Shown: in pieces, positions 26,512 through 41,312 of the stretch
Layout: each line of letters opens with the position of its first letter
How positions within the stretch are numbered: the first letter of the stretch is position 1
Assembly: GCA_964420965.1 (NCBI GenBank)
Contig: CAYQUQ010000001.1
Coordinates: 31,544-95,543 of the forward strand
Direction: 5' to 3'
Length of the DNA: 64,000 nt
DNA from: an uncultured Planctomycetia bacterium
GTDB lineage: Bacteria; Omnitrophota; Gorgyraeia; Duberdicusellales; 4484-171
Notes under the pieces: model-generated
Seen by the model: only the letters and a program-made list of their open reading frames with translations
What the model was told of the DNA's origin: nothing
Database searches by the model: none
Translations under genes and position numbers: made by a program

Positions 26512-26540
26512 TTTACTAATCAAATTTTACTAGTTTTCCG

Positions 26541-28037
26541 ATGCATATCCAAAATCTGCTTACAAAACATACCCAAATTTGTCCCGGCAAAGCGGCCATA
26601 ATCTTTGAAGGCCGGGCTATTTCTTTCTCCGAGCTCAAAGAGAAGGCCTTGAGAGTCGGTAATTATTTATACCGTAGAGGTATCGGCAAAGAAGAAAAGG
26701 TCGCCCTTTTTCTGGCCAATACCCCCGAGGCCGTATTCAGTTTTCTGGGGGTATATGCGGTGGGGGCCTGTGTAGTCCCTCTGGATTTTATGCTCACCGA
26801 AGAGGAGGTTATAAATCTCCTTAACCACAGCCAGGCCAAAATTTTAATTACGTATCCCCGGAAAGGAGTAGATTTAGCCCAGGTCAAAAGCCGCTGTCCC
26901 CATTTACAGGAAATAGTCGTTTGCGCCGAAGCTGCGGCTGGTTTTACATCCTGGGATACTATGCTTAAGGAGAGCAAAGCCGATGAGATTCCGGTAACCA
27001 TTGATCAGAATGACCTTTCTTCTATATTTTATACTTCGGGGTCAACCGGCCATCCTAAAGGGGTAATGCTTAACTATGCGCATCTGGATAACCCCCCTTA
27101 CGCGGTAGATTATTTTTTAAAACTGTCCGCAGAGGATATATTCCTGTGCGGGGGGGTCCCTTTTTCTCACGTCGGCGGTTTAGTTTATATTCTGTTGACC
27201 CTGCGTTTTAGCACCACCCTGGTCCTGATGCGGCGTTTCCATCCTTTTGAGTTTTTGAAAAATATCCAGGAACACCGGGCTACTATTTTCTGTATTGTGC
27301 CGGCCATGTTTATGGCTATTTTATCCTTAAAAGATTATGAAGGCTTTGATTTTTCCTGCCTGCGCTATGCTGTTGTTTTTGGCGCTCCCTCTTCACCCGA
27401 ACTGCTTAAGCGTTTCCACCAGGCTTATCCTAAGGCTCAGTTAGGAAACGGCTGGGGTATGACTGAAACCGCTGCCCCCAACACTTTGTCCGTAGGCGAT
27501 GCCAACATAAGAAGTATCGGCAAATTCACGCCCAATATAGAGGTAAAGGTAATCAACGATAAAGGTGATAGCTTAGGGCCCAATCAGCGCGGCGAACTCA
27601 TGCTCAAGGGCCAGCCGGTAATGACCGGTTATTTTAAGGAGCCGGAATTGACCAGCCAGGCTTTAACCGGCGACGGCTGGCTTAAGACCGGGGACGTGGC
27701 CTATTTTGATGAGGCGGGTTTTTATTATATTGTGGGCCGTAAAAAAGACATGATTAAGGTCGCCGGAGAGATTGTATTCTCTGCCGAGGTCGAAGAAAAA
27801 ATTCTTAAGAATCCTAAAGTCCAAGAAGCAGCCGTTATCGGCGTCGCCGATAAATTGCGGGGAGAAGTACCCAAAGCCTTTATTGCGGCCAAAGCCGAGC
27901 AGACTTTAGACGAACAGGAGCTAAAAGAATTCTTAAAAGAACACCTGGCCCATTTTAAGATGCCCCATTATTTTGTGTTTGTGGATGAACTGCCTAAAAA
28001 CCGAACCGGGAAGATAGATAAGACCAGGTTAAGTTAA
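26541..28037 (+). CDS. AMP-dependent synthetase/ligase (acyl- or aryl-CoA ligase)
   Basis: AMP-binding motif YTSGSTGHPKGV; GWGMTET; C-terminal GEIVFSAEVEE...KMPHYF..VDELPKNRTGKI. Confidence 0.9.
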   Translation: MHIQNLLTKHTQICPGKAAIIFEGRAISFSELKEKALRVGNYLYRRGIGKEEKVALFLANTPEAVFSFLGVYAVGACVVPLDFMLTEEEVINLLNHSQAKILITYPRKGVDLAQVKSRCPHLQEIVVCAEAAAGFTSWDTMLKESKADEIPVTIDQNDLSSIFYTSGSTGHPKGVMLNYAHLDNPPYAVDYFLKLSAEDIFLCGGVPFSHVGGLVYILLTLRFSTTLVLMRRFHPFEFLKNIQEHRATIFCIVPAMFMAILSLKDYEGFDFSCLRYAVVFGAPSSPELLKRFHQAYPKAQLGNGWGMTETAAPNTLSVGDANIRSIGKFTPNIEVKVINDKGDSLGPNQRGELMLKGQPVMTGYFKEPELTSQALTGDGWLKTGDVAYFDEAGFYYIVGRKKDMIKVAGEIVFSAEVEEKILKNPKVQEAAVIGVADKLRGEVPKAFIAAKAEQTLDEQELKEFLKEHLAHFKMPHYFVFVDELPKNRTGKIDKTRLS

Positions 28038-28045
28038 GATCTCTC

Positions 28046-28127
28046 ATCCCGTCCGCCAATGGCGGACGTCGGGATTCGAGATCAATTTTCCTGACTTAAG
28101 GTCAGGGGAAAATTGAGGAGAATAACC
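28046..28127 (+). terminator. Terminator-like hairpin with conserved tail GGGATTCGAGATCAATTTTCCTGA and AAAATTGAGGAG RBS module, copy 2
   Basis: cgtccgccaatggcggacgtcgggattcgagatcaattttcctgacttaaggtcaggggaaaattgaggagaataaccATG. Confidence 0.6.
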
Positions 28128-28883
28128 ATGATGCAACGCGATATTCATATGACTGCCCAAGAGCTTCTCTATTCACTGCAATTTAAAGACGGCGATTTCG
28201 GGGAAATTGCTTTGGTCAGCGGTCAGCAGCACCGGGCCCAAATGTGCCTTAAGCACCTTGAAAACCACGTTAAGAATTTTACCTTTTTAGGTTATACCTT
28301 CTGGACCGGATTTTATAAGGGCAAAAAGGTAACTGTGGGTAACGGCGGCTTTTACGCCCCGGATTCGGCTTTGGCCACCGAACTTTTATGTGCCGGCGGA
28401 ATCAATACTTTTATCCGCCTGGGTTCCTGCGGGGCCTTGCGCCAAGATATCAATATCGGCGATTATGTCTTGGTTACCGATGTTCTCAGAGGCGACGGGA
28501 CAACCCGCTATTATGTTGCCGACGATTTTGTTCCCCGCATAAGCAGTGACTTAAGCGACAGCTTAGAGGCGGCTTTTAAGGAAGCCGGGCCGGTGCATCG
28601 GGGCGGAATCTGGACCACCGATGCCATATTCCGCGAGACCAAAGAAATAGTCAATCCCTATATCGAGAAGGGGGTCATTGCCGTGGACATGGTAACCTCG
28701 CCTTTTGTTACCGTAGCTAATTTAAACCACAAGAAAGTCGCCGCCATATGCGCAGTTTCCGATAATCTGATTACCGGCCAGATGGGCTTTACCGACTTCC
28801 GCTTTTTTGAAGCCGAAATGAAAATGACCGGTTTAGCCTTTAAGGCCATCGAAAATCTTATCGCGGCCCCGGCCCCGGATTAA
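28128..28883 (+). CDS. Nucleoside phosphorylase, PNP/UDP family 1 (purine, MTA or uridine phosphorylase-like)
   Basis: GSCGAL motif; VDMVTSPF; start chosen at ATG 28128 (RBS GAGGAG 7 nt upstream) rather than the TTG at 28113. Confidence 0.7.
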   Translation: MMQRDIHMTAQELLYSLQFKDGDFGEIALVSGQQHRAQMCLKHLENHVKNFTFLGYTFWTGFYKGKKVTVGNGGFYAPDSALATELLCAGGINTFIRLGSCGALRQDINIGDYVLVTDVLRGDGTTRYYVADDFVPRISSDLSDSLEAAFKEAGPVHRGGIWTTDAIFRETKEIVNPYIEKGVIAVDMVTSPFVTVANLNHKKVAAICAVSDNLITGQMGFTDFRFFEAEMKMTGLAFKAIENLIAAPAPD

Positions 28884-28896
28884 CCAGGAGAAAATC

Positions 28897-29157
28897 ATGG
28901 AAATTAAATGGAACGAAGAAACCCGGAAGCATTTTGACCAGGTGATCGGAAATCTGCCCCAGTTTCACCGGACCATTGCCCAGCAACTGGTCAAGGAGAG
29001 CGCGGAAACTATCGCCCAAGAGCGGAGTTCGCCCTGCGTGGAGGAGAAAGATCTGGTGGTAGCTTTTTTTAAAGAAGTGCCGCCGGCTTTTAAGGATATG
29101 ATGAAGCGGCTGTTTAATCAGCAGGGCATAGATTATAGTAAATATGTAGATGGGTAG
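28897..29157 (+). CDS. Small hypothetical protein (86 aa)
   Basis: ORF with RBS AGGAGAAAA; tightly packed between the phosphorylase and the reductase; no motif I recognise. Confidence 0.45.
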   Translation: MEIKWNEETRKHFDQVIGNLPQFHRTIAQQLVKESAETIAQERSSPCVEEKDLVVAFFKEVPPAFKDMMKRLFNQQGIDYSKYVDG

Positions 29158-29165
29158 AAAATAAA

Positions 29166-30182
29166 ATGAAAGTAGCGGTTTTAGGTTGTGGAGCCATCGG
29201 CGGACTTGTCTTAGGGTATCTGTCCCGGGAGGGGTGCGATGTGATAGGGATTGTGCGGGACTATCAAAAGGAACTCCTGTTGAAAGCCGGTTTAAATATA
29301 GAGGGCGTTCGGGGCAACCAAGCCATTAAGGTAAAAGTCGACACAGCTTTAAGGGAAAGGGTAGACCTGGCCATTTTTGCCACTAAGATAAACAATCTCG
29401 AGGACATTATAAAAGAAAATATCGCGTTTTTAAAAGACTCGACCGCTCTTTCTACTCAAAACGGCATCCAGGCCGATTACCTGCTGAATAAGTTTTTTGT
29501 TCCAGAAAAAATTATCACCGGTATCGTTATGTTCGGGGCCACTTTTTACGCTCCCAGCAAAGTTGTGCATAATTTTGAAGGGGATTTTATATTAGGTAAT
29601 ATATATAATACTAAAGTAAATTCTTTGGATAATGTCCTAAACTTATTAAAGCCGGCTTTCAATGCCGTTAATTTAGAAAATATAAAGGGTGCTAAGTACC
29701 TGAAATTATTTATCAATTTGAATAATTGCCTCCCGGCTATTTTAGGACTCTCCATGCAGGAGACTTATTCCGATATAGATTTAGCTAAGTTAGCCATACA
29801 ACTTAATAAAGAGGCTTACGTAGTTATAAGCAAAGCCAATATTAAATTAGAGAGCCTGCCAAGTTATCCCCAAGAAAGAATACAGGGCTTAATCTCAATG
29901 CCGATTGAAGAAGCGGCCGGCCTTTTTTCCAAAATAATGACCAATTTAAGCAAAGAACCTTTATACGGCTCAATCTTGCAGAGTATAAAACGCGGCAAAA
30001 AATCAGAGATTGATTACATCAACGGAGAAATCAGGCACCAGGCCACAGCTAATAAACAGCAAGCACCTTTAAATACAAAAATAGTTGAATTGGTGCATCA
30101 GGTGGAAGAAAGGGGTAGGTTTTTTTCTAAGGAAGAATTGCTATCGCAGTTAAAAGGAGCAGTGTCCCATGAAAAATTATAA
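29166..30182 (+). CDS. 2-dehydropantoate 2-reductase (ApbA/PanE) family NAD(P)-dependent oxidoreductase
   Basis: N-terminal Rossmann MKVAVLGCGAIGGLVLGYL; ApbA-like length and C-terminal domain. Confidence 0.75.
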   Translation: MKVAVLGCGAIGGLVLGYLSREGCDVIGIVRDYQKELLLKAGLNIEGVRGNQAIKVKVDTALRERVDLAIFATKINNLEDIIKENIAFLKDSTALSTQNGIQADYLLNKFFVPEKIITGIVMFGATFYAPSKVVHNFEGDFILGNIYNTKVNSLDNVLNLLKPAFNAVNLENIKGAKYLKLFINLNNCLPAILGLSMQETYSDIDLAKLAIQLNKEAYVVISKANIKLESLPSYPQERIQGLISMPIEEAAGLFSKIMTNLSKEPLYGSILQSIKRGKKSEIDYINGEIRHQATANKQQAPLNTKIVELVHQVEERGRFFSKEELLSQLKGAVSHEKL

Positions 30183-30792
30183 AGCAGAATATTGCCAGGC
30201 TAATTGCGCGGAAATAAATACCCCTTTTCCCCGGATCAAGCTGACTTGCATCGGTGTTTACGGCGAGTGTTATCACGGGTATGAGGTCGGCGATGAATTT
30301 ATTTTAGGTGATTTTACCCATCCGCCTCAGCACTTTTGTTTAGGCTTAGCCCATGCGGTTTTTCCGGTGGCCTATGCTTTAAGCTTCGGCGCTAAATTCG
30401 GCTTTATGGAGAATCAAAAATCATTAAAGGTAACCTGTCCCGACGGGGGCAAAGCCGAATTTTTAGTGGAATTGCTGGATAAAAATGACCAGGTTAAGTT
30501 TGTGCCCAAAGATCCCCATCACAAAGGGCCTAATCCCAAAGATATGGAGATCGAGGTGGTAAAAGCCCAGGGAAAGTGTTCTTACGGTTATAAGATTGGT
30601 GATAAATGGGAGATAAAGGGTTTAAAGTGCATCGAGGGTTTTTGCGGGGCGGCCTGGCATACGGCTTTTCCGGCCCTGTTCGCCCTTAATTTCGGAGCCA
30701 AGTTTTTCTTTATGAAGGACCACAACTCCATAGACACAGTAACCTGCCCTGACGGAGGCAATATTGTGTTTAGAGTTAGACGGAAGGAATAG
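30169..30792 (+). CDS. Cys-rich protein with an internal tandem duplication of an approximately 100-aa domain (TIGR04076-like)
   Basis: Two homologous halves: CIGVYGECYHGYEVGDEF...FCLGLAHAVFPVAYALSFGAKFGFM...VTCPDGG and CSYGYKIGDKWEI...FCGAAWHTAFPALFALNFGAKFFFM...VTCPDGG; overlaps the upstream gene by 14 nt. Confidence 0.65.
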   Translation: MKNYKAEYCQANCAEINTPFPRIKLTCIGVYGECYHGYEVGDEFILGDFTHPPQHFCLGLAHAVFPVAYALSFGAKFGFMENQKSLKVTCPDGGKAEFLVELLDKNDQVKFVPKDPHHKGPNPKDMEIEVVKAQGKCSYGYKIGDKWEIKGLKCIEGFCGAAWHTAFPALFALNFGAKFFFMKDHNSIDTVTCPDGGNIVFRVRRKE

Positions 30793-30863
30793 ATGCGGAT
30801 TACTGCGGATTTAAACGCAGATAAACGCTAAACATCTATGGCGTAGATCCGCGTGAATCAGCT
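30793..30863. repeat. GCGGAT/ATCCGC iteron-containing palindromic intercistronic element, copy R1
   Basis: gcggattactgcggatttaaacgcagataaacgc...ggcgtagatccgcgtgaatcagc. Confidence 0.7.
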
Positions 30864-30883
30864 TCTAATATGGAGGATAATAA

Positions 30884-32137
30884 ATGAAGAGAGTAGTAGT
30901 CACCGGTATCGGTATTATCTGCGGAGCAGGGGAGACAAAAGAAGAATTTTATAAAAATCTCATCGACGGTAAACCCTGTGTTGAGCGGGTGGATAATTTC
31001 GACGTCAGTTTGTTTAATTCCAAAATTGCTTCCCAGGATTTAGGTTTCGACCCCTTGAAGTTTGGCATCAAAGACCATGAACGCATGGATAGGTACGTTC
31101 AATTCAGTATTGCCGCCGCCAAACAGGCAGTTGAGGACAGCAACATCGACGGCAATTCTATCGATCACTACCGGGCCGGGGTGGTTTTAGCCAACGCTAT
31201 CTGCGGCACGCGCTGGATGGAGGAAGAGTTTCTTTTGGTGACCGATTGGGGCAAAAATCCTATCGATCCCCGCAAGGGGCGCCCTTATCTTTATGATGCC
31301 TCTATGTTTAATACCCCGAGCACAGAGATAGCCGCTATTTACGGTCTTAAAGGGATTAACTGCACTATTTCCACCGGCTGTACCGCCGGGACGGATTCCG
31401 TCGGTTTTGCCTACGAGCTGATCAGAGAGGGCCGGCAGGATATGATCGTAGCCGGAGCCGGCGAAGCACCGATTACCCCGATTACTTTCGGCGCTTTCGA
31501 CGTAATCAACGCGATTTCCAAACGTAATGACGAACCGCATAAAGCATCCCGCCCCTTTGACAAGCAGAGAGACGGATTTGTTCTTTCCGAGGCCAGCGGA
31601 ATTCTAGTGTTAGAGGAATTAGAACATGCCCGAAAAAGAGGTGCGCCGATTTACTGTGAAATAATCGGTTACGGGACTTCCTGTAATGCTTATCATATGA
31701 CTGATTTACCCCAGGACGGCGTGGCTATGGTTCAGTGTTTAGAGGAGACTTTCAAAGACGCTAAGATTGCCAAAGAAAAAATCGATTACATCAACACCCA
31801 CGGTTCATCTACCCCTCAGAATGACGTTTTCGAGACCAACGCCTACAAAACTTATTTTGGCGATTTAGCCTACCAGCTTCCGATCAGTTCAATCAAGTCG
31901 ATGATCGGGCATCCCCTGGCCGCAGCCAATGCCGTAGAGTCAGTTCTTTGTGCCCTGATTTTTAAGAAAAACATTCTTCCTCCCACCATAAATCAGGAAG
32001 AGAAAGATCCCCGGTGCGATTTAGACTATATACCTAATAAGGCCAGAGAAAAAAAAGTAGATTATATTTTGAAGACCAGCAGTGGATTCTCCGGAATTCA
32101 CTCCTCAATGGTTTTTAAACGTTGGGAGGATAAATGA
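30884..32137 (+). CDS. Beta-ketoacyl synthase, KS-alpha type (type II PKS/FAS ketosynthase)
   Basis: Active-site region ISTGCTAGTDSVGFA (Cys present); His motifs INTHGSST and SMIGHPL; 417 aa. Confidence 0.9.
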   Translation: MKRVVVTGIGIICGAGETKEEFYKNLIDGKPCVERVDNFDVSLFNSKIASQDLGFDPLKFGIKDHERMDRYVQFSIAAAKQAVEDSNIDGNSIDHYRAGVVLANAICGTRWMEEEFLLVTDWGKNPIDPRKGRPYLYDASMFNTPSTEIAAIYGLKGINCTISTGCTAGTDSVGFAYELIREGRQDMIVAGAGEAPITPITFGAFDVINAISKRNDEPHKASRPFDKQRDGFVLSEASGILVLEELEHARKRGAPIYCEIIGYGTSCNAYHMTDLPQDGVAMVQCLEETFKDAKIAKEKIDYINTHGSSTPQNDVFETNAYKTYFGDLAYQLPISSIKSMIGHPLAAANAVESVLCALIFKKNILPPTINQEEKDPRCDLDYIPNKAREKKVDYILKTSSGFSGIHSSMVFKRWEDK

Positions 32138-33369
32138 AAGAGCGCGTTGCCGTTACCGGCTTAGGGGTTGTTTCACCGGCAGGATTGAAGAAGGAGACTT
32201 TCTGGGCTAATTTAAAGGCCGGCCGCTCGTTCATTGACGCCATAAAACGTTTTGATGCCGGGCTGTATCCTTCCCGAATTGCCGGACAGGTCCGGGAGTT
32301 AGATATTTATACCCATCTTTCCGGCCGGCTGCTTAAAAAAATAGATGTATTTTCTCATATGGCCCTGGTTGCCAGCGATCAAGCCTTTAAAGATGCCCAG
32401 GCTGATTTAGATAAAATTGATAAAAATAGAGTGGGAGTATTTATGGGTAACGCTTTAGGCGGCTGGCTGTTTGCCGAAACCGAGTTAAGGGATTTATATT
32501 TAGAAGGAAGAGAAGGAATTTCTCCCTATATGGCTTCGGCCTGGTTTCCGGCTGCACCCCAGGGGCAGGTCACCATTTACTACGGGATTAAAGGTTACAG
32601 TAAGACCGTAGTTGCCGATAAAGCCTCCAGCGCTTTAGCGGTCTGGTACGGCTCAAGAGTTTTAAGGGATGAAAAGAGCGATTTTATTTTAGCCGGGGGG
32701 ATGGAAGCTCCGATTACCCCTTACGCCCTTTTATGCGCTAATACCTACGGGAGCCTTTCTAAAAATAATATGATCCCTCATTGCGCCTACCGGCCTTATG
32801 ATTTGTATCGTGACGGATTTGTAATCGGAGAAGGTTCGGGCATGACGCTGCTGGAAAGGGAAAGCCAGGCTTTAAAAAGAGGCGTGCATATTTACGGATT
32901 CATAAAAGGTATTGGCTTCAGTTCCGACGGGATTCACCACATGCGCTATGCGCTGGAAACGGAAGCTTTAGAATACGCAATTGACCAATGCCTTAAGGAT
33001 TGCGGCTGGAATAAAGAAGACGTAGATTACATCTGTCTCGACGGAGAGGCTACTGCCCTGGGCGACGCCCTGGAAGCAAAAGCTCTGCATCATGTTTTTG
33101 GGGACAAACTTAAAAGCATTTCTTTAAGCGCTCCCAAAAGCATGTACGGTAATCTCCTCGGAGCTCAGACTTCCCTGGATTTAATTGCCACTCTGCTTTC
33201 CATGCAAAACAGCCTTGTGCTTCCCACTATCAATTTCACGGAAAAAGACCCTCACTGCGATATCGACTGCACGCCGAATGAACCGGTTTCCCGGGATATA
33301 AATAAGGCTTTGATTCTGGCCCGGGGTCGCGGCGGAATAAACGTAGCTTTAGGAGTAGAAAAGGAATAG
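32134..33369 (+). CDS. Beta-ketoacyl synthase-like partner subunit (KS-beta/chain-length-factor-like; active-site Cys absent)
   Basis: KS fold, but the active-site position reads VADKASSALAV (no Cys; Lys where canonical chain-length factors have Gln); translationally coupled to KS-alpha by a 4-bp overlap. Confidence 0.8.
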   Translation: MKERVAVTGLGVVSPAGLKKETFWANLKAGRSFIDAIKRFDAGLYPSRIAGQVRELDIYTHLSGRLLKKIDVFSHMALVASDQAFKDAQADLDKIDKNRVGVFMGNALGGWLFAETELRDLYLEGREGISPYMASAWFPAAPQGQVTIYYGIKGYSKTVVADKASSALAVWYGSRVLRDEKSDFILAGGMEAPITPYALLCANTYGSLSKNNMIPHCAYRPYDLYRDGFVIGEGSGMTLLERESQALKRGVHIYGFIKGIGFSSDGIHHMRYALETEALEYAIDQCLKDCGWNKEDVDYICLDGEATALGDALEAKALHHVFGDKLKSISLSAPKSMYGNLLGAQTSLDLIATLLSMQNSLVLPTINFTEKDPHCDIDCTPNEPVSRDINKALILARGRGGINVALGVEKE

Positions 33370-33379
33370 GGAGGTTAGT

Positions 33380-33613
33380 ATGACCTTAAAGGAAGAAATT
33401 ATCGATTTGATTTGCCAGGCCTTAGAGGTCAAAAAGGAAGAAATTAAAGAGGACCAGACTTTATATGATTCCGTAGGGGTTGATTCTACCGAGATGGTGG
33501 AGCTGAGGGTAGCCATTAATAAGAATTTGGGCGTTAATTTAGAACAGGGCGATATTACCAATAAACAAACCATAAACCAGATTGTAGACACAGTCCAAAA
33601 CAAAAAACAATAA
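33380..33613 (+). CDS. Acyl carrier protein
   Basis: 77 aa; phosphopantetheine attachment motif DSVGVDSTEMVEL. Confidence 0.85.
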   Translation: MTLKEEIIDLICQALEVKKEEIKEDQTLYDSVGVDSTEMVELRVAINKNLGVNLEQGDITNKQTINQIVDTVQNKKQ

Positions 33614-33620
33614 TTTGTAG

Positions 33621-33640
33621 GGGCCGGACATGTCCGGCCC
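33621..33640 (+). terminator. Perfect 20-bp palindrome gggccggacatgtccggccc directly after the ACP gene (intercistronic stem-loop)
   Basis: Direct reading; a similar TAGGGGCCG...CGGCCC hairpin follows korB at 63361-63383. Confidence 0.5.
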
Positions 33641-33652
33641 GATACTAAATCA

Positions 33653-34450: not shown

Positions 34451-34531
34451 AAGCTTTCAGCTATCAGCCATCAGCTCTCAGCATAGAGATAAAAAAGCTG
34501 ACAGCTGAAAGCAGAAAGCTGATAGCTAAAA
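34451..34531. repeat. CAGCT/AGCTG-rich imperfect palindrome between the cyclase and SRPBCC genes
   Basis: aagctttcagctatcagccatcagctctcagc...gctgacagctgaaagcagaaagctgatagct. Confidence 0.5.
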
Positions 34532-34544
34532 AAGGAGGATTAAG

Positions 34545-34988
34545 ATGGCGCACACCCGAAATGCAATCGTGATCAATGCTGCTTATGACAAGGTTTTTGA
34601 TGTCAGTAATGATATTGCCCGCTGGAAGGAATTCTTCAATGAATACACTGAGTCAGAAGTTTTGGAAAAACAAGGCAATAAACTGACTTTTAAGCTTACC
34701 CACGAAAAAGGGATGAATTGGAAATCCTACCGGCTGCTATTTAAAGAAGATAAGTTTGCTTATGCTTCCCGGGTCGAACCGATGTTTCCTTTCGAATACA
34801 TGCGGATTATCTGGCTCTATCGGGAAGTAGAGGGTGGTACGGAGATGATCTGGATTCAGGATTTTAAGATGGATAAAGGGGCTAAGTTTACCGACGAGCA
34901 GGTGGAGAAGATGATGAATGAGCACTCCCAGGAAAACTTAAAGCGGTTTAAGGAGATTATCGAAAGCGAAGCGAAAGTGAATGCCTAA
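34545..34988 (+). CDS. SRPBCC (Bet v1-like) polyketide cyclase/dehydrase family protein
   Basis: 147 aa; N-terminus IVINAAYDKVFDVSNDIARWKEFF typical of SRPBCC/aromatase-cyclase domains. Confidence 0.7.
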   Translation: MAHTRNAIVINAAYDKVFDVSNDIARWKEFFNEYTESEVLEKQGNKLTFKLTHEKGMNWKSYRLLFKEDKFAYASRVEPMFPFEYMRIIWLYREVEGGTEMIWIQDFKMDKGAKFTDEQVEKMMNEHSQENLKRFKEIIESEAKVNA

Positions 34989-36120
34989 AATAAGCTTTCT
35001 CATTTTTTGCCTGATATTCTGCACGGTTTCTTTTGGGGTGGCGGCCATGGCCGCTTTGATCCCCTCGATTGCCGCCCATTTCGGGGTTTCTCCAGACTAC
35101 GCCATCCGGCTCACCTGGCTGTATATGCTTCCTTACGGAGTAGTGGCCCTTTTCTGGGCCCCGTTAACCCGGATTATCAAGATAAAAAAAATACTCCTTT
35201 TTGCCACTGCCGGATTTTTCTTATCGGCGTTGCTGTTTAGCCTTTCGCGCAGTATACACCAGGCCTTTATTTTTCGCTTCCTGATGGGAGCCTTTGCCTG
35301 CAGCTTCGTACCCCTCTCCTTAATTACCGTAGGCAAGGTCATTGATGCCGAGAGTAAGGCAAAGTATGTGGGTACGTTTTTCGGCCTCTCTTATATATCT
35401 ACCCTGGTGAGCGTTTTTTTAAGCGGATTTATCCACTGGAGGATTATTTATCTGATCCCGGCTGTATCCAGCCTGGCTATATTCGCGCTGGTTTTAACCC
35501 ACCTGCATGATTTTGATTTTAGAAAGACCAGCTTTAAGATCAGCTATCTGGAGACACTCAAAGATAAAAATGCCAGCCGCTTTTTTCTGGTAATTATATT
35601 GGGAAGCATGCTTTATCACAGCTTACAACAGAGGCTGGGGGTATATCTCAGCCAGACCTTTTCTTTAACCCAGGTGGTTATCAGCACCATTTTTACCATC
35701 GCCACCCTCGCCGCGATTGCTTTTGAGTTTTCGGGAGGGTTTTTAAGCTCCCGTTTCGGTAACCTTAGAGTAGCCCGCATCGGTTTTATTCTGATGAGCG
35801 TTTTTACCTTAGGCCTTATTTTTACCCGCCAATATCAGCCCTTATTTTTCTTTATCGTTCTCTGGGGTTCGGGCTGGGCCTTGACTCATGTCGGGTTATC
35901 GACTCACCTCACTAATTTTCCGGATCGAATATTACGTGATGCATCGAGCTTAAACAGCTCCCTGCGTTTTAGCGCCGGGGGCCTGGGGGCTTTTTTAGGC
36001 GGAGTGCTGGTTACAATGGCCGGCTTTAAATTTTTGTTCTGGCTGGTGGCAGTAAGTATATTTTTATTGGGGTTTTATCTGGAAAAATTTTTAAACGGAG
36101 GAAAGAAAAGCCATGGCTGA
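34981..36120 (+). CDS. MFS transporter (probable exporter)
   Basis: About 12 predicted TM helices; MFS motif region RFLMGAFACSFVP. Confidence 0.8.
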   Translation: MPKISFLIFCLIFCTVSFGVAAMAALIPSIAAHFGVSPDYAIRLTWLYMLPYGVVALFWAPLTRIIKIKKILLFATAGFFLSALLFSLSRSIHQAFIFRFLMGAFACSFVPLSLITVGKVIDAESKAKYVGTFFGLSYISTLVSVFLSGFIHWRIIYLIPAVSSLAIFALVLTHLHDFDFRKTSFKISYLETLKDKNASRFFLVIILGSMLYHSLQQRLGVYLSQTFSLTQVVISTIFTIATLAAIAFEFSGGFLSSRFGNLRVARIGFILMSVFTLGLIFTRQYQPLFFFIVLWGSGWALTHVGLSTHLTNFPDRILRDASSLNSSLRFSAGGLGAFLGGVLVTMAGFKFLFWLVAVSIFLLGFYLEKFLNGGKKSHG

Positions 36121-36874
36121 TTTAAAGGATAAAGTCTGTATTATTACCGGAGCCAGCGGCGGAATCGGTAAGGTAATCGTGGCCAGATTAGCTCAGCAAG
36201 GGGCAAAACTGATTTTGGCCGCGAGGAGATTAGAAATACTCGAAGAGTTAAAACAATCCTTGCCGCATCCCGATAATATCTTATGCATCAAATGTGACGT
36301 TACCCAGCAGGCGGATTTAGAAGGCCTGGTGAATAAAGCTTTAGAAAAGTTTAAAAGAATCGATATTCTGGTTAACGCGGCCGGTGTTTCCAGCCAGCAC
36401 CCTTTCTTCAGCCAGCCCCTGGAAGATATTGAAAAGATAATGTATACTAATTATTTCAGCTATGTAATGCTTTCCCGGCTGGTGGTAAATCCGATGAAAG
36501 AACAGAGAGGGGGGCATATTATCAATATTACCAGCGGTTCGGTTATGGTTGAACCGCCCCCGCGCAATTTTATCGTTTATACATCACTGAAGGTGGGTTT
36601 ACGGGCCTTTGCCAAAGGTCTTTTCTGGGAAATGCGCGACTTCGGGATTAAAGTCACTTCGATTTTTCCGGGCGTAACCCGCACCCCTTTAACCGGAAAA
36701 TTGAAAAATATCGCTGAAGATAGATTAATCGAGCCGGAGGCTATTGCCGATACGGTTTTATTCGCCTTAGCCCAACCGGCTAATACCTGTCCGCTGGAAT
36801 TAGCCGTAATCAACCAGCAGACTCCCTGGACTAAGCCGGTGATACCGTTTAAGCAGGATCATCCCCAAAAGTGA
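36113..36874 (+). CDS. Short-chain dehydrogenase/reductase (ketoreductase)
   Basis: TGASGGIGK NAD(P)-binding; catalytic Y...K (YTSLK); NAAG motif. Confidence 0.88.
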   Translation: MADLKDKVCIITGASGGIGKVIVARLAQQGAKLILAARRLEILEELKQSLPHPDNILCIKCDVTQQADLEGLVNKALEKFKRIDILVNAAGVSSQHPFFSQPLEDIEKIMYTNYFSYVMLSRLVVNPMKEQRGGHIINITSGSVMVEPPPRNFIVYTSLKVGLRAFAKGLFWEMRDFGIKVTSIFPGVTRTPLTGKLKNIAEDRLIEPEAIADTVLFALAQPANTCPLELAVINQQTPWTKPVIPFKQDHPQK

Positions 36875-37461
36875 GGTGGAATATGGACAAGAAAAGGCGT
36901 TTTTTATGGTTAGGGTTAGTGGCTTTACTGCTCTGGGGTTGTAATATCGAATCCCCGAATCCGTTAGGCGACCCGGCCGCGGCGGTGATTGATCCGGATT
37001 TACCGGGAATATGGTATGCCGTGGAGAACGAAGGCGAGGGTGCCGAGTTTTACGCGGCTATTTTTCAGCGCGACCAAGGCCGCTTGCATATAATTTATTT
37101 TAGCGACGCGCGGGAAGAAGACCTTATTTATCTGGAAGGGTTTATTTCCGAGATTAATGGCCAGCGGTTTTTAAATTTAAAGCTTATCGACCGCTATGCC
37201 GAAGAAGATGACCAAAATTACATATTTTTTCCTTACGATATCGACAAAAAAGGGCAATTAGTAACCCGTACTCTTAAAACCGAGTTTTTTACACAGGCCA
37301 TAGAGGACGGAGCAATCAAAGGAAGCGTTTCCGACAGTGAATTCTTCACTTCGGTAACCTTAGACGACTCTACCCAAAATCTGGTTGCCTTTATCGCCAA
37401 GCACAAAAAGGAAGAGTATTCGGAGAAAGACTCCGGTATTTTCCGCAGGATGAAGAAATAA
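36871..37461 (+). CDS. Hypothetical lipoprotein
   Basis: Signal peptide with lipobox LLLWGC; 196 aa; no motif I recognise. Confidence 0.55.
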   Translation: MRWNMDKKRRFLWLGLVALLLWGCNIESPNPLGDPAAAVIDPDLPGIWYAVENEGEGAEFYAAIFQRDQGRLHIIYFSDAREEDLIYLEGFISEINGQRFLNLKLIDRYAEEDDQNYIFFPYDIDKKGQLVTRTLKTEFFTQAIEDGAIKGSVSDSEFFTSVTLDDSTQNLVAFIAKHKKEEYSEKDSGIFRRMKK

Positions 37462-37496
37462 TTGGGGACAGACCCTAATTCAAAGGGAGGAAAAAG

Positions 37497-38957
37497 ATGA
37501 AGGTTTTGTTTGTGATGCCAAAAATCGGGGCCTGGGCTACCCACGGAGAGCATGTGGCGCCCAACCAGTTGTATGCCCAGTGGGCGGCTTATATTCGCCA
37601 GAAAGGGTATACGGATTTAGAGGTTTTAGATTGCACCATTCTCAATATCCCTCTGGACCAGCTAGCCGGAAAAGTTAAAGAGAAGAATCTGGATTTGGTC
37701 CTGATGGGTGATATGATTCACTGTTCGGTGGGATTCGGTATTATCTGGCATTTTAATGAAGCCGCTTCCCGGATAAGGCAAGCTTTACCTGAGGTTAAGA
37801 TTGTTGTCGGCGGCCTCTGGTATTCAGCTACCCCTATTGAGACTTTAGAGGATAACCCGGCTATTGATCATGTGGTTATGGGCGAAGAGGAAGCTTTTTA
37901 TGATTTAGTCAAAACCATTGACAGCGGGACATCGACTAAAGATGTGGCCGGAACCGCCAGTCGCATTGACGGTAAGCCTCAAATGGGGCCGCACCGGCCG
38001 TTGATGACCGATTTAGACAACTTACCTTTACCGGCTTATGACTTGTTTCCCATGGATAAATATGTGGGTCATACTCACTGGAAGCCGTTTGTAGAGATGA
38101 TAACTTCCCGGGGGTGTCCATCAGCCTGTACCTTTTGTTATGAGTGGAACCAGTATGATCCCCGTTCACCCAATGATTTTTTAACCTGGCGGGCCAAGTC
38201 TCCGGAACGGGTGATCGAAGAGCTGGAGCTGCTGCACCATAAGTTCGGTGTTAAAGTAGTAGTGATCCAGGACGATAACTTTAACGTTGACGCTGAAAGG
38301 GTGGAGAAGTTTTGTAATTTAAAGAAAGAAAAAGGTAATCCCATTAAATGGGTTTCTTTGGGCCGGGCTATTGACTGGGTAAATTGCGAGAAGATATTGC
38401 CCCTGATGAAAGAAACCGGTTTATTTATGGGGGTATTTGGAATCGAGGTAACCACTCCCGAGGAACTCAAGAAAATCGCTAAAGGAATAACCGTTGAGCA
38501 CATTAAAAAGACCATTGATATTTTACGGGCCAATGACGTGGCCATTGTGGCTGATATTATGATCGGCTTTGACTATGATAACGAGCAGATTGTAAAACAG
38601 CGGCATGAGTTTACCGATCAGGTTGATCCGGATATTTTATGGGTCGGCTATGTTACCCCGGCGCCCAATTCGCCGATGTGGAGAATTAGCTTAAAGAAGG
38701 GGTGGTTTGACCCCCGGAAAATCGATTTTCTTAAATGGGATTTTCTGCACCCGGTAATACCTACTGACCATCTCTCCATCGAGGATTTAGGCCGGCTGGG
38801 GGCCTGGTCGATGCGGGAGTTTTTCTCCAAGCCGGGCAGAATTCAGCGGATTATGACCAGTAACTTCGATCCCCTGGCCAAACTTTGCTTCCAGGATGTT
38901 ATGCGTGGAGTGCAGAAGTGGGAGGAAGGCGCGGTCAAAGGCGAAAAACACATATAA
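37497..38957 (+). CDS. B12-binding domain radical SAM protein (class B radical SAM, probable C-methyltransferase or related)
   Basis: N-terminal cobalamin-binding-like Rossmann region; radical SAM motif SRGCPSACTFCYEW; 486 aa. Confidence 0.85.
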   Translation: MKVLFVMPKIGAWATHGEHVAPNQLYAQWAAYIRQKGYTDLEVLDCTILNIPLDQLAGKVKEKNLDLVLMGDMIHCSVGFGIIWHFNEAASRIRQALPEVKIVVGGLWYSATPIETLEDNPAIDHVVMGEEEAFYDLVKTIDSGTSTKDVAGTASRIDGKPQMGPHRPLMTDLDNLPLPAYDLFPMDKYVGHTHWKPFVEMITSRGCPSACTFCYEWNQYDPRSPNDFLTWRAKSPERVIEELELLHHKFGVKVVVIQDDNFNVDAERVEKFCNLKKEKGNPIKWVSLGRAIDWVNCEKILPLMKETGLFMGVFGIEVTTPEELKKIAKGITVEHIKKTIDILRANDVAIVADIMIGFDYDNEQIVKQRHEFTDQVDPDILWVGYVTPAPNSPMWRISLKKGWFDPRKIDFLKWDFLHPVIPTDHLSIEDLGRLGAWSMREFFSKPGRIQRIMTSNFDPLAKLCFQDVMRGVQKWEEGAVKGEKHI

Positions 38958-39844
38958 TGCTTTGCGATAGCCATATTCACTTCATTCCTAAAGAATTGTC
39001 GGCCTATACTGCCTTCTACAAGGGCATATGGACGGATAAGGATAAGCTTTACGGGTTTTTGGAGCACCATAAAATAGAAAAGGCCCTTTTGGCTTATCCT
39101 TCTACCGATGCCCATCTAAAGCTGGAAGTCTTTTCCCGGGTCTGTGAGATTTACAATTCGGCTTTGGCAGAGGTTATTAAAGAAAATCCCCAGATTATCG
39201 GGGCGGGAATTGTGGATATGGATAATCTTTCCGGGGTGGCGGCGCAAGCCGAGGAGCTAAAGCAAAAGGGCTTTGGGGCCGTCAGTATCGCTTCCAGCCA
39301 TAACGGAAAATTCTGGGTTAAAGAGCTAGAACCTCTGTTTGCGGCGGCCCAGAATCAGAATTTACCTGTTTTTGTCCACCCCCAGACCATAAACCCCATT
39401 GGCTTTGAGCGGGTAAAAGACCCGTTGCTTATGCCGGTATTAGAATACAGCCTTGACTCTTCAATGTTTATGGGGCTGTTGATGATGGAAGGGATTCTGG
39501 AAAAGTACCAGGTAAAGTTTATCTTTTCTTCTTTAGGCGGAATCACTCCTTTTCTAAAAGACCGGTTCGACCGGGTTTATACCATGCTCCGGAAACGGCA
39601 GATTGTGAAAGACTTAGGCAAGCTGCCCACGCAAATTTTAAAGAACGTCTATGTGGATACTTCCGGGGCCTCCTTGAAGAATATTCAGCTGGCTATGGAG
39701 TTATTCGGAGCGGATAAGCTTTTGTGGGGCTCGGACTATCCGGTCTGCGGTGACATCCCGGGTAATTTGAAGATGCTGGATGAATTAGGGCCTGAAACCA
39801 AAGAAAAAATTAGTTATCAAAATTTCCAGGCTATTTTCGGATGA
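38957..39844 (+). CDS. Amidohydrolase-2 family metal-dependent TIM-barrel hydrolase
   Basis: MLCDSHIHF metal-binding start; WGSDYP; start at 38957 (TAATG overlap with the upstream stop) rather than 38885. Confidence 0.75.
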   Translation: MLCDSHIHFIPKELSAYTAFYKGIWTDKDKLYGFLEHHKIEKALLAYPSTDAHLKLEVFSRVCEIYNSALAEVIKENPQIIGAGIVDMDNLSGVAAQAEELKQKGFGAVSIASSHNGKFWVKELEPLFAAAQNQNLPVFVHPQTINPIGFERVKDPLLMPVLEYSLDSSMFMGLLMMEGILEKYQVKFIFSSLGGITPFLKDRFDRVYTMLRKRQIVKDLGKLPTQILKNVYVDTSGASLKNIQLAMELFGADKLLWGSDYPVCGDIPGNLKMLDELGPETKEKISYQNFQAIFG

Positions 39845-40659
39845 AGATTTATTGTAACGGTGATTTAATCGAGAAGGAGCAGGTAACCGAACTCTTTGAG
39901 CCGGGGTTTCTCTTTGGCTGGGGGGTGTTTGAGGCTTTACGGACCTACGCCGGCAACATTCCCTTTCTGGATGCGCATATCGCCAGGTTGAATGAAAGCC
40001 TCGAACTTTTAGGGATTGGAAAAATAGAACTGGATTGGTCTAAGACTATAACAGATTTGCTGCAGGAAAATCGCTTAGAGGACGCCTACGTGCGCATCAC
40101 CGCTTACAAAAAGAGAAAAGGTACCGGCTTGTTAATTTATGCCGACACCTTCGGTTATTATACCGCCGATATCTATAAAGAAGGGTTTTCGGCCATCATT
40201 TCGCCCCATAGAAGATGCGGGAAAAACATCTGTTCTAAGAGCAAGTCTCTTAGCTACTTACAGAACAGAATTTCCTGGCTCGCGGCTCAAAAGGTAAAAA
40301 AAGACGAGGCCCTGGTTTTAAATCCGGAAGGGTTCTTAGCCGGCGGGTCGCGCAGCAATCTCTTTCTGGTTAAAAATAAGGAAATTTTTACCCCGGCTAT
40401 TGAGTGCGGGGCTTTTGCCGGTATTACCCGCAAGGCAGTTATGGAAATAGCTGCGGAATTGGGCTTAGCCGTAAAAGAAGGCAAACTTACTGTTGACGAT
40501 ATCGATGATTGCAAGGAAGCATTTATAACCAGCGCTTTGCTGGAAGTTATGCCTTTAGTCGAGTGCGCGGGTAAACTATTGAGTAAGGGTAAGCCCGGAG
40601 AAATGACTGGTAAGATTTTAGGGCATTATCGAGAGAGACTGAAAGTAAAGGCCGCTTAA
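39841..40659 (+). CDS. Class IV aminotransferase (branched-chain amino acid aminotransferase / aminodeoxychorismate lyase fold)
   Basis: LFEPGFLFGWGVFEALRTY...; fold type IV pattern with E..R..G; 272 aa. Confidence 0.8.
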   Translation: MKIYCNGDLIEKEQVTELFEPGFLFGWGVFEALRTYAGNIPFLDAHIARLNESLELLGIGKIELDWSKTITDLLQENRLEDAYVRITAYKKRKGTGLLIYADTFGYYTADIYKEGFSAIISPHRRCGKNICSKSKSLSYLQNRISWLAAQKVKKDEALVLNPEGFLAGGSRSNLFLVKNKEIFTPAIECGAFAGITRKAVMEIAAELGLAVKEGKLTVDDIDDCKEAFITSALLEVMPLVECAGKLLSKGKPGEMTGKILGHYRERLKVKAA

Positions 40660-40674
40660 CCAAAAGAGAAAATC

Positions 40675-41301
40675 TTGGCAGTTCAAAATAAGCACTATGA
40701 TAAACTGTACTATCGGGGCCGGGGATCGAATTACATCTTTGGCTACCGGAACCTGCGTTCACGCCTATTCTGGCGGCGCCGGCTGAAAGTTTTAGCCAAG
40801 ATTTCTCCTTCGGGAAGATTGTTAGATATCGGCTGTGCTTTCGGATTTTTTATAAAAATTCTGGAAAAGAAATACCAGGTTTACGGAATAGATATCTCGG
40901 AATACGCTATAAAGCAGGCTCGGAATTTAGTTTCTCATCCCGAATATTTAAAATGCTGTGATGTCACCCAGGGGATACCTTTTCGTGATAAGTTCAATGT
41001 GATTACGGCCTTCGATATCATTGAACACATCGCCGAGCCCCTGACTGTTTTTAAAATTATCAGGCCGTCTTTAGCCGAAGCAGGGTCTCTTTATTTGGAA
41101 TTACCTTTATCCAAAACCCTGATTGACTTTGACCGGGGCCATCATTACCGGCCTTTAGAAGAGTGGCTTAACCTTTTGTCTTCGGCCGGCTTTAAGCCGA
41201 ATTTTATGCAAACTTACTATACGGTCGGCTTAAGAGGCGTGATGATTCCGGCCAAACGCCGAATGAATTATGCCAGTATTGTGGTTAAAGCTATACCTTA
41301 A
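40675..41301 (+). CDS. Class I SAM-dependent methyltransferase
   Basis: Motif I LDIGCAFGFF; motif II VITAFDIIEHI. Confidence 0.8.
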   Translation: MAVQNKHYDKLYYRGRGSNYIFGYRNLRSRLFWRRRLKVLAKISPSGRLLDIGCAFGFFIKILEKKYQVYGIDISEYAIKQARNLVSHPEYLKCCDVTQGIPFRDKFNVITAFDIIEHIAEPLTVFKIIRPSLAEAGSLYLELPLSKTLIDFDRGHHYRPLEEWLNLLSSAGFKPNFMQTYYTVGLRGVMIPAKRRMNYASIVVKAIP

Positions 41302-41312
41302 GGATTAAAAAA

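Follow-up and report, generated by a model that had tools for sequence, protein, structure and literature searches.

A conserved locus for a predicted aromatic type II polyketide synthase with a linked nucleoside module in Candidatus Omnitrophota

The stretch of DNA analysed here, 64,000 nucleotides of contig CAYQUQ010000001.1 (positions 31,544 to 95,543 of the forward strand, in the following called the window), originates from a non-actinobacterial host, an uncultured, ultra-small member of Candidatus Omnitrophota. An exact match to the window was found in a JGI metagenome contig of 193 kb. A conserved locus of about 18 kb, spanning from 26541 to about 44742, was identified in the window, which very probably encodes an aromatic type II polyketide synthase (PKS). 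All coordinates are positions in the window, and the gene assignments are based on Pfam and NCBIfam scans. By its sequence relationships, the predicted synthase is of the 'ancestral', early-branching non-actinomycete kind, represented by the ant, den and clr clusters. At least 92 GTDB species carry the locus, which occurs in three distinct gene orders and is a vertically conserved, lineage-wide trait in Candidatus Omnitrophota and not a sporadic cluster. For the locus as a whole, we favour with somewhat better than even confidence a scheme in which an aromatic polyketide would be formed without oxygen, and in which a linked module would convert a 5'-deoxynucleoside to an acyl-CoA, for salvage or for starter supply. 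Most work on type II PKSs concerns actinomycetes; anaerobes have provided few examples, each of them with new chemistry.

From 26541 to 46648, the + strand carries an uninterrupted series of co-directional genes which are tightly packed or overlapping, and all open reading frames (ORFs) of the locus are intact. The G+C content within the locus is 0.45-0.46, equal to that of the flanks. An earlier note, made from the sequence alone, had described a contiguous, co-directional and tightly spaced cluster; all genes named there lie on the + strand where it had placed them, and every one of its family assignments was reproduced by the scans. However, the cluster does not end at 41301, as had been assumed, but continues with the genes for an isomerase, an aldolase with an SCP2 domain and an aldehyde dehydrogenase. 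A promoter and terminator scan of 26000-45999 gave counts equal to the shuffled expectation; one 10/12 promoter-like site is located at 26484-26511, 5' of the first gene of the locus, which codes for an AMP-dependent ligase.

The synthase core and its tailoring proteins

For the condensing subunit, the ketosynthase (KS) KS-alpha (30884-32137; PF00109 and PF02801), the Cys-His-His triad was found to be complete, with the Cys in the motif ISTGCTAGTD, and the same triad is present in all 8 Omnitrophota KS-alpha sequences that were aligned. The best matches of KS-alpha in the PDB are AntD with 365 bits, followed by Act KS-alpha with 357 bits and FabF with at most 340 bits. An insertion of five residues is common to KS-alpha, AntD and Act KS-alpha and is missing from Bacillus subtilis FabF. 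Against the FabF equivalog model TIGR03150 (cut-off 493.75), KS-alpha scored 454.3 and its partner KS-beta 344.8. In a neighbour-joining tree of 110 ketosynthases, the Omnitrophota KS-alpha proteins grouped with AntD in 95 of 100 bootstraps, and with AntD and Act KS-alpha in all 100, while FabF from B. subtilis and Escherichia coli remained outside. A search of 1.8 billion representative proteins identified the next relatives of KS-alpha at 47-52% identity, among them a protein of Clostridium botulinum and proteins named 'minimal PKS ketosynthase (KS/KS alpha)' by JGI; in this set, apparently the entire Omnitrophota KS family is collapsed to one or two fused KS-KS representatives.

KS-beta (32134-33369), the chain-length factor (CLF), is predicted to be catalytically dead. 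In its motif VVADKASSAL, Lys takes the place of the Cys (other sub-lineages have Arg there), and Asn that of the second His, in agreement with the earlier description of a KS-alpha with and a KS-beta without the Cys. The start of the KS-beta gene overlaps the stop of the KS-alpha gene by 4 nt, and the two genes are predicted to be translationally coupled. Taken on its own, KS-beta is FabF-like, with 255 bits to FabF and 222 bits to Act CLF. For comparison, four non-actinobacterial type II PKS loci from anaerobes or metagenomes (L088 to L091) were used as outgroups. After addition of the KS-alpha partners from these four other non-actinobacterial loci, KS-beta was found in a purely CLF clade in 97-100 of 100 bootstraps; it is 41% identical to the CLF of L090. 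In actinobacterial CLFs, the position of the Cys is occupied by a Gln, the residue for decarboxylative priming. This Gln is absent from the Omnitrophota proteins, which have Lys or Arg, and related non-actinobacterial CLFs contain Arg, Met, Ser or Asp; since the outgroup CLFs vary in this way, the Gln is not a defining residue for the early-branching CLF clade.

Directly downstream of KS-beta, a discrete acyl carrier protein (ACP) is encoded (33380-33613; PF00550, E 2.6e-12), with the Ser for phosphopantetheine attachment in the sequence GVDSTE. It is followed by a predicted PF04199 metal-dependent cyclase of the OxyN/DpsY type (33653-34450; E 5e-30). This protein contains the motif HSGTHLDYSYH, which corresponds to the metal-binding motif HxGTHxDxxxH, and is 36-37% identical (E 1e-62 to 1e-64) to the PF04199 genes in the type II PKS loci L089 and L090. 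Its relatives of solved structure are weak, isatin hydrolase and kynurenine formamidase, and no polyketide cyclase was found among its PDB matches. The next gene codes for a mono-domain TcmN-type aromatase/cyclase of the SRPBCC family (34545-34988), which matched TcmN (2rez) with an E value of 1.2e-30 and WhiE (3tvr) with 2e-21. Residues Tyr35, Arg69, Trp28, Trp65 and Ser67 of TcmN align and are kept in this protein; of these, Tyr35 and Arg69 are reported to be essential in TcmN. Of the two outcomes by which the earlier note would have been refuted, a KS pair firmly within FabF/FabB and cyclase genes that are unrelated hydrolases, neither was observed. The cyclase genes are a TcmN-type gene with its catalytic residues and a gene with counterparts in type II PKS loci. 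Together with the phylogeny of KS-alpha, the CLF clade of KS-beta and the ACP, they are in line with the minimal aromatic-polyketide machinery that the earlier note had proposed.

Two points weigh against the assignment of the synthase. The trees were obtained by neighbour joining, a simple distance method, with few labelled references, and no gene for a malonyl transferase or a phosphopantetheinyl transferase is present within the locus.

Downstream of the cyclases, an MFS transporter (34981-36120; PF07690, E 1.5e-28) is encoded which probably exports the product, followed by a short-chain dehydrogenase/reductase (SDR) annotated as ketoreductase (36113-36874; adh_short and KR domain), which is 35% identical to the SDR of the type II PKS locus L091. 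The B12-binding radical S-adenosylmethionine (SAM) enzyme (37497-38957; PF02310 and PF04055, motif CPSACTFC) scored highest with BchE (171 bits over nearly the full length), followed by HpnJ (137 bits). Neither score reaches the respective cut-off, and those against C-methyltransferase families are lower. BchE and HpnJ are enzymes of oxidative cyclisation or rearrangement. The Amidohydro_2 protein (38957-39844, with an ORF also from 38885; PF04909) resembles non-oxidative decarboxylases of the ACMSD/LigW type: 22 of its 31 PDB matches are named decarboxylases for aromatic or vinylogous acids (ACMSD, 5-carboxyvanillate, iso-orotate and 2,3-dihydroxybenzoate decarboxylases), the others being unnamed amidohydrolases and PtmU3. 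It is 29% identical to its homologue in L091.

Upstream of KS-alpha, three further proteins are encoded. The first is a helical DUF2621/PCP_red-like protein of 86 amino acids (28897-29157; DUF2621, E 4.5e-6), for which the match to PCP_red is below threshold, with an E value of 0.1 here and of 6e-5 and 0.0015 in orthologues. A role as adaptor or substrate carrier for radical enzymes is proposed for this protein. Its gene adjoins, in the related loci as well, the gene of an NAD(P)H-dependent reductase of the ApbA/PanE family (29166-30182; PF02558 and PF08546; TIGR00745 score 143.8, cut-off 141.35). The third is a tandem-duplicated, Cys-rich TIGR04076 protein (30169-30792). ApbA and TIGR04076, for which fusions occur in several related loci, among them L006, are a further conserved redox pair.

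Conservation and gene order in Candidatus Omnitrophota

By a profile scan with KS-beta, in which one genome per GTDB species was included, 92 species were identified, and 80 of their loci were examined by tblastn with every protein of the window; counts out of 35 refer to those loci for which at least 20 kb of sequence is available. KS-alpha is 63-87% identical across the 80 species loci where the gene is complete, and the identities fall into the same tiers for all genes of the locus. KS-alpha sequences with 72-100% identity form more than 120 clusters in public data, and all clusters with a name derive from metagenome-assembled genomes (MAGs) of Candidatus Omnitrophota. The earlier note had considered such clusters uncommon outside Actinobacteria, and the host is indeed non-actinobacterial; however, the cluster is not an isolated one, but is found throughout the lineage.

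KS-alpha, KS-beta, the PF04199 cyclase and the SRPBCC protein are present in all 35 long loci, ApbA and the ACP in 34, the DUF2621-like protein, the SDR and the B12-radical-SAM enzyme in 33, and the MFS transporter in 32. The phosphorylase of the nucleoside module and the Amidohydro_2 protein were found in 31 of these loci, the MtnA-like isomerase and TIGR04076 in 30. Lower counts were obtained for the aldolase (25), the AMP-dependent ligase (23) and the aldehyde dehydrogenase (16), in part because the available sequence ends in some of the loci. The B12-radical-SAM enzyme is 48-87% identical in the related loci.

Three genes of the window do not belong to this conserved set. The class IV aminotransferase or lyase (39841-40659; PF01063), which is under every NCBIfam cut-off, is present in 14 of the long loci and in 16 of all 80, which belong to one sub-lineage. 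The SAM-dependent methyltransferase (40675-41301), with matches to several methyltransferase families in Pfam, was found in a single locus by either count. A lipoprotein-like protein (36883-37461, with an ORF also from 36871), with a signal peptide containing LLWGC and without any match in Pfam or NCBIfam, was found in none of the 35 long loci and in none of the 80. Aminotransferase and methyltransferase are thus variable or rare accessories, and the lipoprotein is a lineage-specific insert. C-methylation and amination by the B12-radical-SAM enzyme and the aminotransferase had been expected earlier; the genes for both are present, but the latter is an accessory, and the radical SAM enzyme is nearer to BchE and HpnJ than to C-methyltransferases.

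In the order of the window type, the ligase, phosphorylase, DUF2621, ApbA and TIGR04076 genes precede the KS genes, and the radical SAM, decarboxylase, (aminotransferase,) isomerase, aldolase and aldehyde dehydrogenase genes are located downstream. In the second type, the order is (ligase), phosphorylase, isomerase, aldolase, aldehyde dehydrogenase, radical SAM, DUF2621, ApbA and KS. The third type begins with DUF2621, ApbA, TIGR04076, KS-alpha, KS-beta, radical SAM and ACP, and decarboxylase, phosphorylase, isomerase, aldolase and aldehyde dehydrogenase follow further downstream. The block from phosphorylase to aldehyde dehydrogenase is contiguous in the second and third types, while in the window type the phosphorylase gene is located upstream beside the ligase gene; in all three gene orders, these four genes are linked to the PKS. 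A closed chromosome of 1.82 Mb (CP070807.1; L005/L009) carries a C-terminal ApbA fragment of 219 amino acids together with TIGR04076, KS-alpha, KS-beta, ACP, both cyclases and the MFS transporter.

Most of the 80 loci are labelled Omnitrophota. The others are generic TPA bins under the labels Planctomycetia, Planctomycetales or Thermodesulfobacteriota, two entries named simply 'bacterium' and one Methanosarcinales bin. Full Omnitrophota synteny under a MAG label other than Omnitrophota was seen for L042 (JAIWAR010000044.1), L082 and many loci with CAZ* or CAY* accessions. Since the differently labelled loci share the syntenic gene set of Omnitrophota, these labels are taken as binning or labelling errors. 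Velamenicoccus is reported to attack methanogens, which makes the label 'Methanosarcinales archaeon' notable.

Three related carriers are listed in the supplement of Seymour et al. 2023, and these three, to which the class assignment is confined, all belong to the class Velamenicoccia (Koll11 in GTDB), in two orders, with estimated genome sizes of 1.25-2.5 Mb. The class Velamenicoccia is predicted to be anaerobic. Three closed chromosomes with the locus have sizes of 1.28, 1.52 and 1.82 Mb, and the locus accounts for 1.0-1.4% of the genome. That genomes of 1.2-1.8 Mb retain the locus speaks for a role of its product in core physiology over that of an occasional antibiotic. Candidates for the product include a polyphenol or quinone with redox activity and a factor of host interaction. 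With at least 92 species keeping a locus that fills more than 1% of their genomes (about 1.2-1.8 Mb), the pattern is the signature of a needed function and not of an optional antibiotic, and the product is probably important to the way of life of the lineage.

The literature on Omnitrophota and Velamenicoccus was searched, and no description of this locus was found. In the main genomic study of the phylum, the word 'polyketide' is absent from the main text (PMC10066038). A census from 2023 lists Candidatus Omnitrophica as one of 14 phyla with KS-CLF pairs, with no further analysis (PMC10132072).

The nucleoside module and competing explanations

The first enzyme of the putative nucleoside module is a nucleoside phosphorylase of the hexameric NP-I type (PNP_UDP_1; 28128-28883; PF01048), for which the gene caller chose the ATG at 28128, while the ORF extends further, to a TTG at 28113. 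Its best relative of solved structure is the hexameric 5'-methylthioadenosine phosphorylase from Sulfolobus solfataricus (1jds, 89 bits), and it scored far below all NCBIfam equivalog cut-offs; 5'-deoxyadenosine or methylthioadenosine is proposed as the substrate. The second is an MtnA-family (IF-2B) isomerase (41313-42251; PF01008, E 1e-57), a candidate for the conversion of an aldose-1-phosphate to a ketose-1-phosphate, which passes the subfamily model TIGR00524 (197, cut-off 185.85) and remains below the MtnA equivalog models (219.8 with a cut-off of 279, and 241 with a cut-off of 271). Its gene always follows that of the phosphorylase where the block is contiguous. The third is a class II (Zn) aldolase with a C-terminal SCP2 domain (42254-43252; PF00596, E 2e-34, and PF02036), related most closely among solved structures to fuculose-1-phosphate aldolases. 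The Glu, HxH and His residues for metal binding and catalysis are present (TTEFPLH, IHCH and NHG), and the SCP2 domain was scored in most of the aldolase homologues as well. An NAD(P)+-dependent aldehyde dehydrogenase (43249-44742; PF00171, E 2e-167) completes the block.

The AMP-dependent acyl-CoA/ACP ligase of the FadD/MenE type (26541-28037; PF00501 and PF13193) matched PRK06187 as the best NCBIfam family with 431 bits, below the cut-off of 476. Its gene adjoins that of the phosphorylase in both major gene orders. Two further loci (L092 and L093) were selected via the aldolase instead of the KS, and both turned out to be PKS loci again; in L093, the genes for phosphorylase, isomerase, aldolase, aldehyde dehydrogenase and AMP-dependent ligase are contiguous in the order of the proposed reactions. 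An assignment of the ligase as orthologue of AntG was considered and rejected, as its identity to the AntG-like ligase of L089, an ant/den-like locus, is only 22%, and as its gene is always located beside nucleoside genes in Omnitrophota. In L013, L014 and L025, an aldehyde:ferredoxin oxidoreductase (AOR) of the tungsten type is present, and the aldehyde dehydrogenase was not found in the available sequence. The AOR gene is located directly 5' of the ApbA gene in L013 and L025, and in L025 it reads as a fusion of AOR, ApbA and TIGR04076 with 1165 amino acids. This suggests a non-orthologous replacement of a single step, and if the dehydrogenase has been replaced by AOR, the oxidation of the aldehyde would be a required reaction.

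A set of enzymes of this kind is known from two pathways. The dihydroxyacetone phosphate (DHAP) shunt for salvage of 5'-deoxyadenosine or methylthioadenosine consists of MtnP or Pfs/MtnK, MtnA and Ald2. The route from 5'-fluorodeoxyadenosine to fluoroacetate uses FlB, an isomerase, an aldolase and an aldehyde dehydrogenase. In the proposed scheme, phosphorylase, isomerase and class II aldolase would split a 5'-deoxynucleoside to the free base, DHAP and a two-carbon aldehyde. The simplest substrate would be 5'-deoxyadenosine from the radical SAM enzyme, or methylthioadenosine. The aldehyde would then be oxidised to the acid by the aldehyde dehydrogenase (in a few genomes by AOR), and the acid would be activated by the AMP-dependent ligase, so that the module may both remove an inhibitory by-product and yield an acyl thioester able to prime the PKS. 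On the ACP, the PKS itself would assemble malonyl units into a poly-beta-keto chain, which the two cyclases and the ketoreductase would fold and aromatise. The decarboxylase may remove the terminal carboxylate, and the B12-radical-SAM enzyme, probably assisted by the PCP_red/DUF2621-like protein, may carry out an oxygen-independent oxidative cyclisation, rearrangement or methylation before the product would be exported by the MFS protein.

Several points weigh against this scheme. All substrate assignments are inferred, and phosphorylase, isomerase, aldolase, B12-radical-SAM enzyme and ligase are all under the curated equivalog cut-offs. The ligase, with 498 amino acids, falls into the group of medium- and long-chain and aryl acid ligases and not into that of acetate-CoA ligases, and is therefore a poor fit with plain acetate from 5'-deoxyadenosine. 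The SCP2 domain of the aldolase hints at a hydrophobic ligand, for which simple salvage does not account. The missing Gln of the CLF had been considered as proof of a non-acetate starter and was dropped, since the outgroup CLFs vary at this position. On the closed chromosome CP070807.1, no radical SAM, SDR, decarboxylase or nucleoside module gene was found within 10 kb of the locus.

An explanation in which the nucleoside module is a dedicated starter factory is doubtful, but it survives best among the alternatives. Here, a SAM-derived 5'-substituted 5'-deoxyadenosine, such as methylthioadenosine, would be converted via X-CH2-CHO and X-CH2-COOH to an X-CH2-CO-thioester which primes the PKS. 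This logic parallels the formation of fluoroacetate from 5'-fluorodeoxyadenosine and of chloroethylmalonyl-CoA from 5'-chlorodeoxyadenosine. The order of the enzymes is that of fluoroacetate biosynthesis, the genes from phosphorylase to ligase are contiguous in L093 while elsewhere the ligase gene adjoins that of the phosphorylase, the ligase is of the medium-chain/aryl type and not an acetate ligase, and the module is linked to the PKS in three orders and absent from the outgroup PKS loci. However, the same genes are explained by salvage of the radical SAM by-product, the active-site residue of the CLF is uninformative on priming, and no KSIII or acyltransferase for loading of the starter is present. 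Nor do the loci contain a conserved halogenase, fluorinase or other maker of an unusual 5'-substituted adenosine; when all ORFs of 81 loci were clustered, no conserved fluorinase, chlorinase or other SAM-cleaving enzyme was found. The recurrent ORF families in these 81 loci are mostly antisense shadow ORFs, the real ones being two small proteins without Pfam match (149 and 158 amino acids), a coiled-coil protein and flanking housekeeping genes.

The protein of about 149 amino acids is encoded between the DUF2621-like and ApbA genes in L025 (4793-5242) and about 20 other loci of both sub-lineages, and is not present in the window. It has no match in Pfam or NCBIfam and could be a second small cyclase or carrier. 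The protein of about 158 amino acids is encoded between isomerase and aldolase in L043 (18832-19308) and its relatives, which are sub-lineages with a shorter MtnA-like gene; since it faintly matches a portion of MtnA (E 2.6e-4), it might represent an isomerase domain that was split off.

Improbable, in our view, is the explanation implied by the earlier note, that of an ordinary, horizontally acquired antibiotic cluster with the nucleoside genes as unrelated housekeeping neighbours. Clostrubin and the dendrubins of other anaerobes are antibiotics (PMC7693217), an MFS exporter is part of the locus, and the synteny with a housekeeping RlmN gene downstream is conserved as well. However, such a cluster would be hard to bring into line with its occurrence in at least 92 species with the same identity tiers for all genes, with a G+C content equal to that of the flanks, or with its share of 1.0-1.4% in genomes of 1.28-1.82 Mb. 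The nucleoside block, moreover, stays linked to the PKS through three rearrangements, and the AOR in place of the aldehyde dehydrogenase in three loci suggests that a step was replaced.

A specialised fatty acid or lipid synthase, either a FabF duplicate or a cluster of the kind that antiSMASH names 'ladderane' when a KS is located near a B12-radical-SAM gene, is very unlikely. In its favour, the KS-alpha score exceeds the cut-off of the broad FabF subfamily model NF005589 (445 bits, cut-off 387), the best solved relatives of KS-beta are FabF proteins, and antiSMASH 'ladderane' clusters are reported for Omnitrophota MAGs of the Cariaco Basin (PMC9902471). The FabF reading was rejected on the trees, which place both subunits in PKS clades, the shared insertion, the KS-alpha score below the equivalog cut-off and the genes for an OxyN-type cyclase and for a TcmN-type aromatase whose catalytic residues are intact. 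The ladderane reading was rejected on a score of 65.4 bits against the ladderane radical SAM model TIGR04072 (cut-off 360). No dehydratase or enoyl reductase is encoded in the locus. No fabZ, fabI, fabD or fabH was found in the window from 11151 onwards, where ORFs were scanned (11151 to 58100) or read (58142 to 63941).

For the favoured scheme of an aromatic polyketide with a linked nucleoside module, the linkage suggests a new type of starter supply or a built-in recycling of the radical SAM by-product. In its boldest form, which we regard as rather unlikely, the ultra-small and putatively predatory or parasitic Velamenicoccia would all make one lineage-defining aromatic polyketide, the PKS being primed by a two-carbon unit from the ribose of a SAM-derived 5'-deoxynucleoside and the product being tailored without oxygen by the BchE-like B12-radical-SAM enzyme with a PCP_red-like carrier. 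If true, a type II PKS primed from a nucleoside would be described for the first time, and a genome-reduced bacterium would use a polyketide as a core physiological molecule, for instance as electron carrier or predation factor.

Flanking genes and comparison with known systems

At the periphery of the locus, two further genes continue the co-directional series. The first codes for an LsrF/DhnA-type class I aldolase-thiolase (44790-45641), which passes the LsrF equivalog with 359.5 (cut-off 297), and the second for a Zn alcohol dehydrogenase (45632-46648). The LsrF-type aldolase is 79-86% identical in related genomes and is located beside the locus, on either side, in L015, L017, L069, L084 and L092; in L069, L084 and L092 it is accompanied by the Zn alcohol dehydrogenase. 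LsrF chemistry, in which a diketone phosphate and CoA are converted to DHAP and acyl-CoA, could provide a second route from a sugar phosphate to an acyl-CoA. Further downstream, an RlmN-like radical SAM methyltransferase is encoded (48323-49351, + strand), and since L092 and L093 carry such a gene on the same side of the locus, the downstream flank is syntenic too.

Upstream, an ORF of 2353 amino acids (19220-26281, + strand) is located between a TrmA-like gene (17595-18740) and the AMP-dependent ligase gene. It contains no Pfam domain and was found in none of the 35 long loci. In related loci, the genes for a nitroreductase, TrmA and the ligase are directly adjacent, which identifies the ORF as a lineage-specific insertion. 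In the segment 20001-22000, a raised G+C content (0.52) coincides with a strong AT skew (0.195). Giant ORFs without assigned function are a known feature of Omnitrophota (PMC10066038). Two proteins with a transglutaminase core are encoded at 11151-13514 (+ strand; also with DUF3857, DUF3858 and TPR) and at 50007-51161 (- strand), and a TPR-trypsin-like protease at 15292-16911 (- strand). These transglutaminase-core and protease genes may have surface or predation-related functions.

The outgroup loci allow a separation of shared and added parts. For the PF04199, SRPBCC, SDR and Amidohydro_2 proteins, recognisable counterparts are present among L088-L091, and for the 86-amino-acid protein a counterpart exists at the domain level. 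B12-radical-SAM genes are also carried by L088-L091, with only about 24% identity to the enzyme of the window. None of the four outgroup loci contains the nucleoside module, ApbA or TIGR04076, which are therefore Omnitrophota-specific additions. In L088 (C. botulinum, SGKU01000039.1), the region 2196-5292 codes for a U32 'peptidase' and a HemN-like radical SAM protein, each with a C-terminal DUF2621/PCP_red-like domain, and these domains match the 86-amino-acid protein with an E value of about 1e-9. Among the members of the U32 family are UbiU and UbiV, which are oxygen-independent hydroxylases. L088 also holds genes for a malonyl transferase, a DAHP synthase and a SAM synthetase. In L091, a free PCP_red protein of 64 amino acids is encoded beside the SRPBCC gene, and Amidohydro_2 and B12-radical-SAM genes are present. 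By this, recurring parts of an anaerobic aromatic-polyketide machinery are outlined: B12- and HemN-type radical SAM enzymes, PCP_red/DUF2621 modules and ACMSD-type decarboxylases.

The AntA-I system of Photorhabdus luminescens for AQ-256 provides with AntD (PDB 6SMO) the best solved relative of KS-alpha. The hosts of both systems are Gram-negative, and the genes of the ant cluster likewise code for KS-alpha, CLF and ACP, for a ketoreductase, for cyclases of the SRPBCC and PF04199 types and for an adenylate-forming ligase. In the Omnitrophota locus, however, no AntI-type chain-shortening hydrolase and no phosphopantetheinyl transferase is encoded, the aromatase is a mono-domain protein and not a TcmN-TcmN fusion, and the ligase is not an orthologue of AntG. 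In addition, the B12-radical-SAM enzyme, the decarboxylase, the ApbA-TIGR04076 pair and the nucleoside module are present only here. As the ancestral non-actinomycete architecture, the order KS-CLF-ACP-TcmN-OxyN has been described (PMC7693217). In the window, KS-alpha, KS-beta, ACP, PF04199 and TcmN are contiguous from 30884 to 34988, with the two cyclases swapped compared to the published ancestral order.

This 'ancestral' architecture and an anaerobic host are shared with clostrubin (clr) and wexrubicin from Clostridium, with dendrubin (den) from Dendrosporobacter and with L088. Between L088 and the window, the identity is 46% for KS-alpha, 35% for CLF and 37% for SRPBCC. A B12-radical-SAM gene is present in L088 as well, where it is located directly upstream of KS-alpha; the two enzymes are not orthologous (24% identity). 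The CLF of L088 is likewise without the Gln (ADMASS). The DUF2621 domain is fused to the U32 and HemN-like enzymes in Clostridium, whereas it is a free protein in Omnitrophota, and L088 contains neither the nucleoside module nor ApbA, TIGR04076 or an Amidohydro_2 gene. The known clostridial type II PKS clusters are sporadic, whereas the Omnitrophota locus is conserved in the lineage.

With the DHAP shunt and the fluoroacetate route, the nucleoside module shares the families and the order of phosphorylase, MtnA-family isomerase and class II aldolase, with the aldehyde dehydrogenase as in the fluoroacetate route. In Omnitrophota, the SCP2 domain of the aldolase, the AMP-dependent ligase and the embedding in a PKS locus are added, a fluorinase or chlorinase is not present, and all members are under the equivalog cut-offs. 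Compared to actinorhodin and tetracenomycin from Streptomyces, the logic of the minimal PKS and the TcmN-type aromatase/cyclase are shared, but the Omnitrophota CLF lacks the Gln and by score is closer to FabF than to Act CLF; there are no oxygenases, a radical SAM enzyme being present instead, and the host is uncultured and its genome measures about 1.2-1.8 Mb. The features not shared by the known relatives are the lineage-wide conservation in genome-reduced uncultured bacteria, the embedded module from nucleoside to acyl thioester and the ApbA-TIGR04076 pair.

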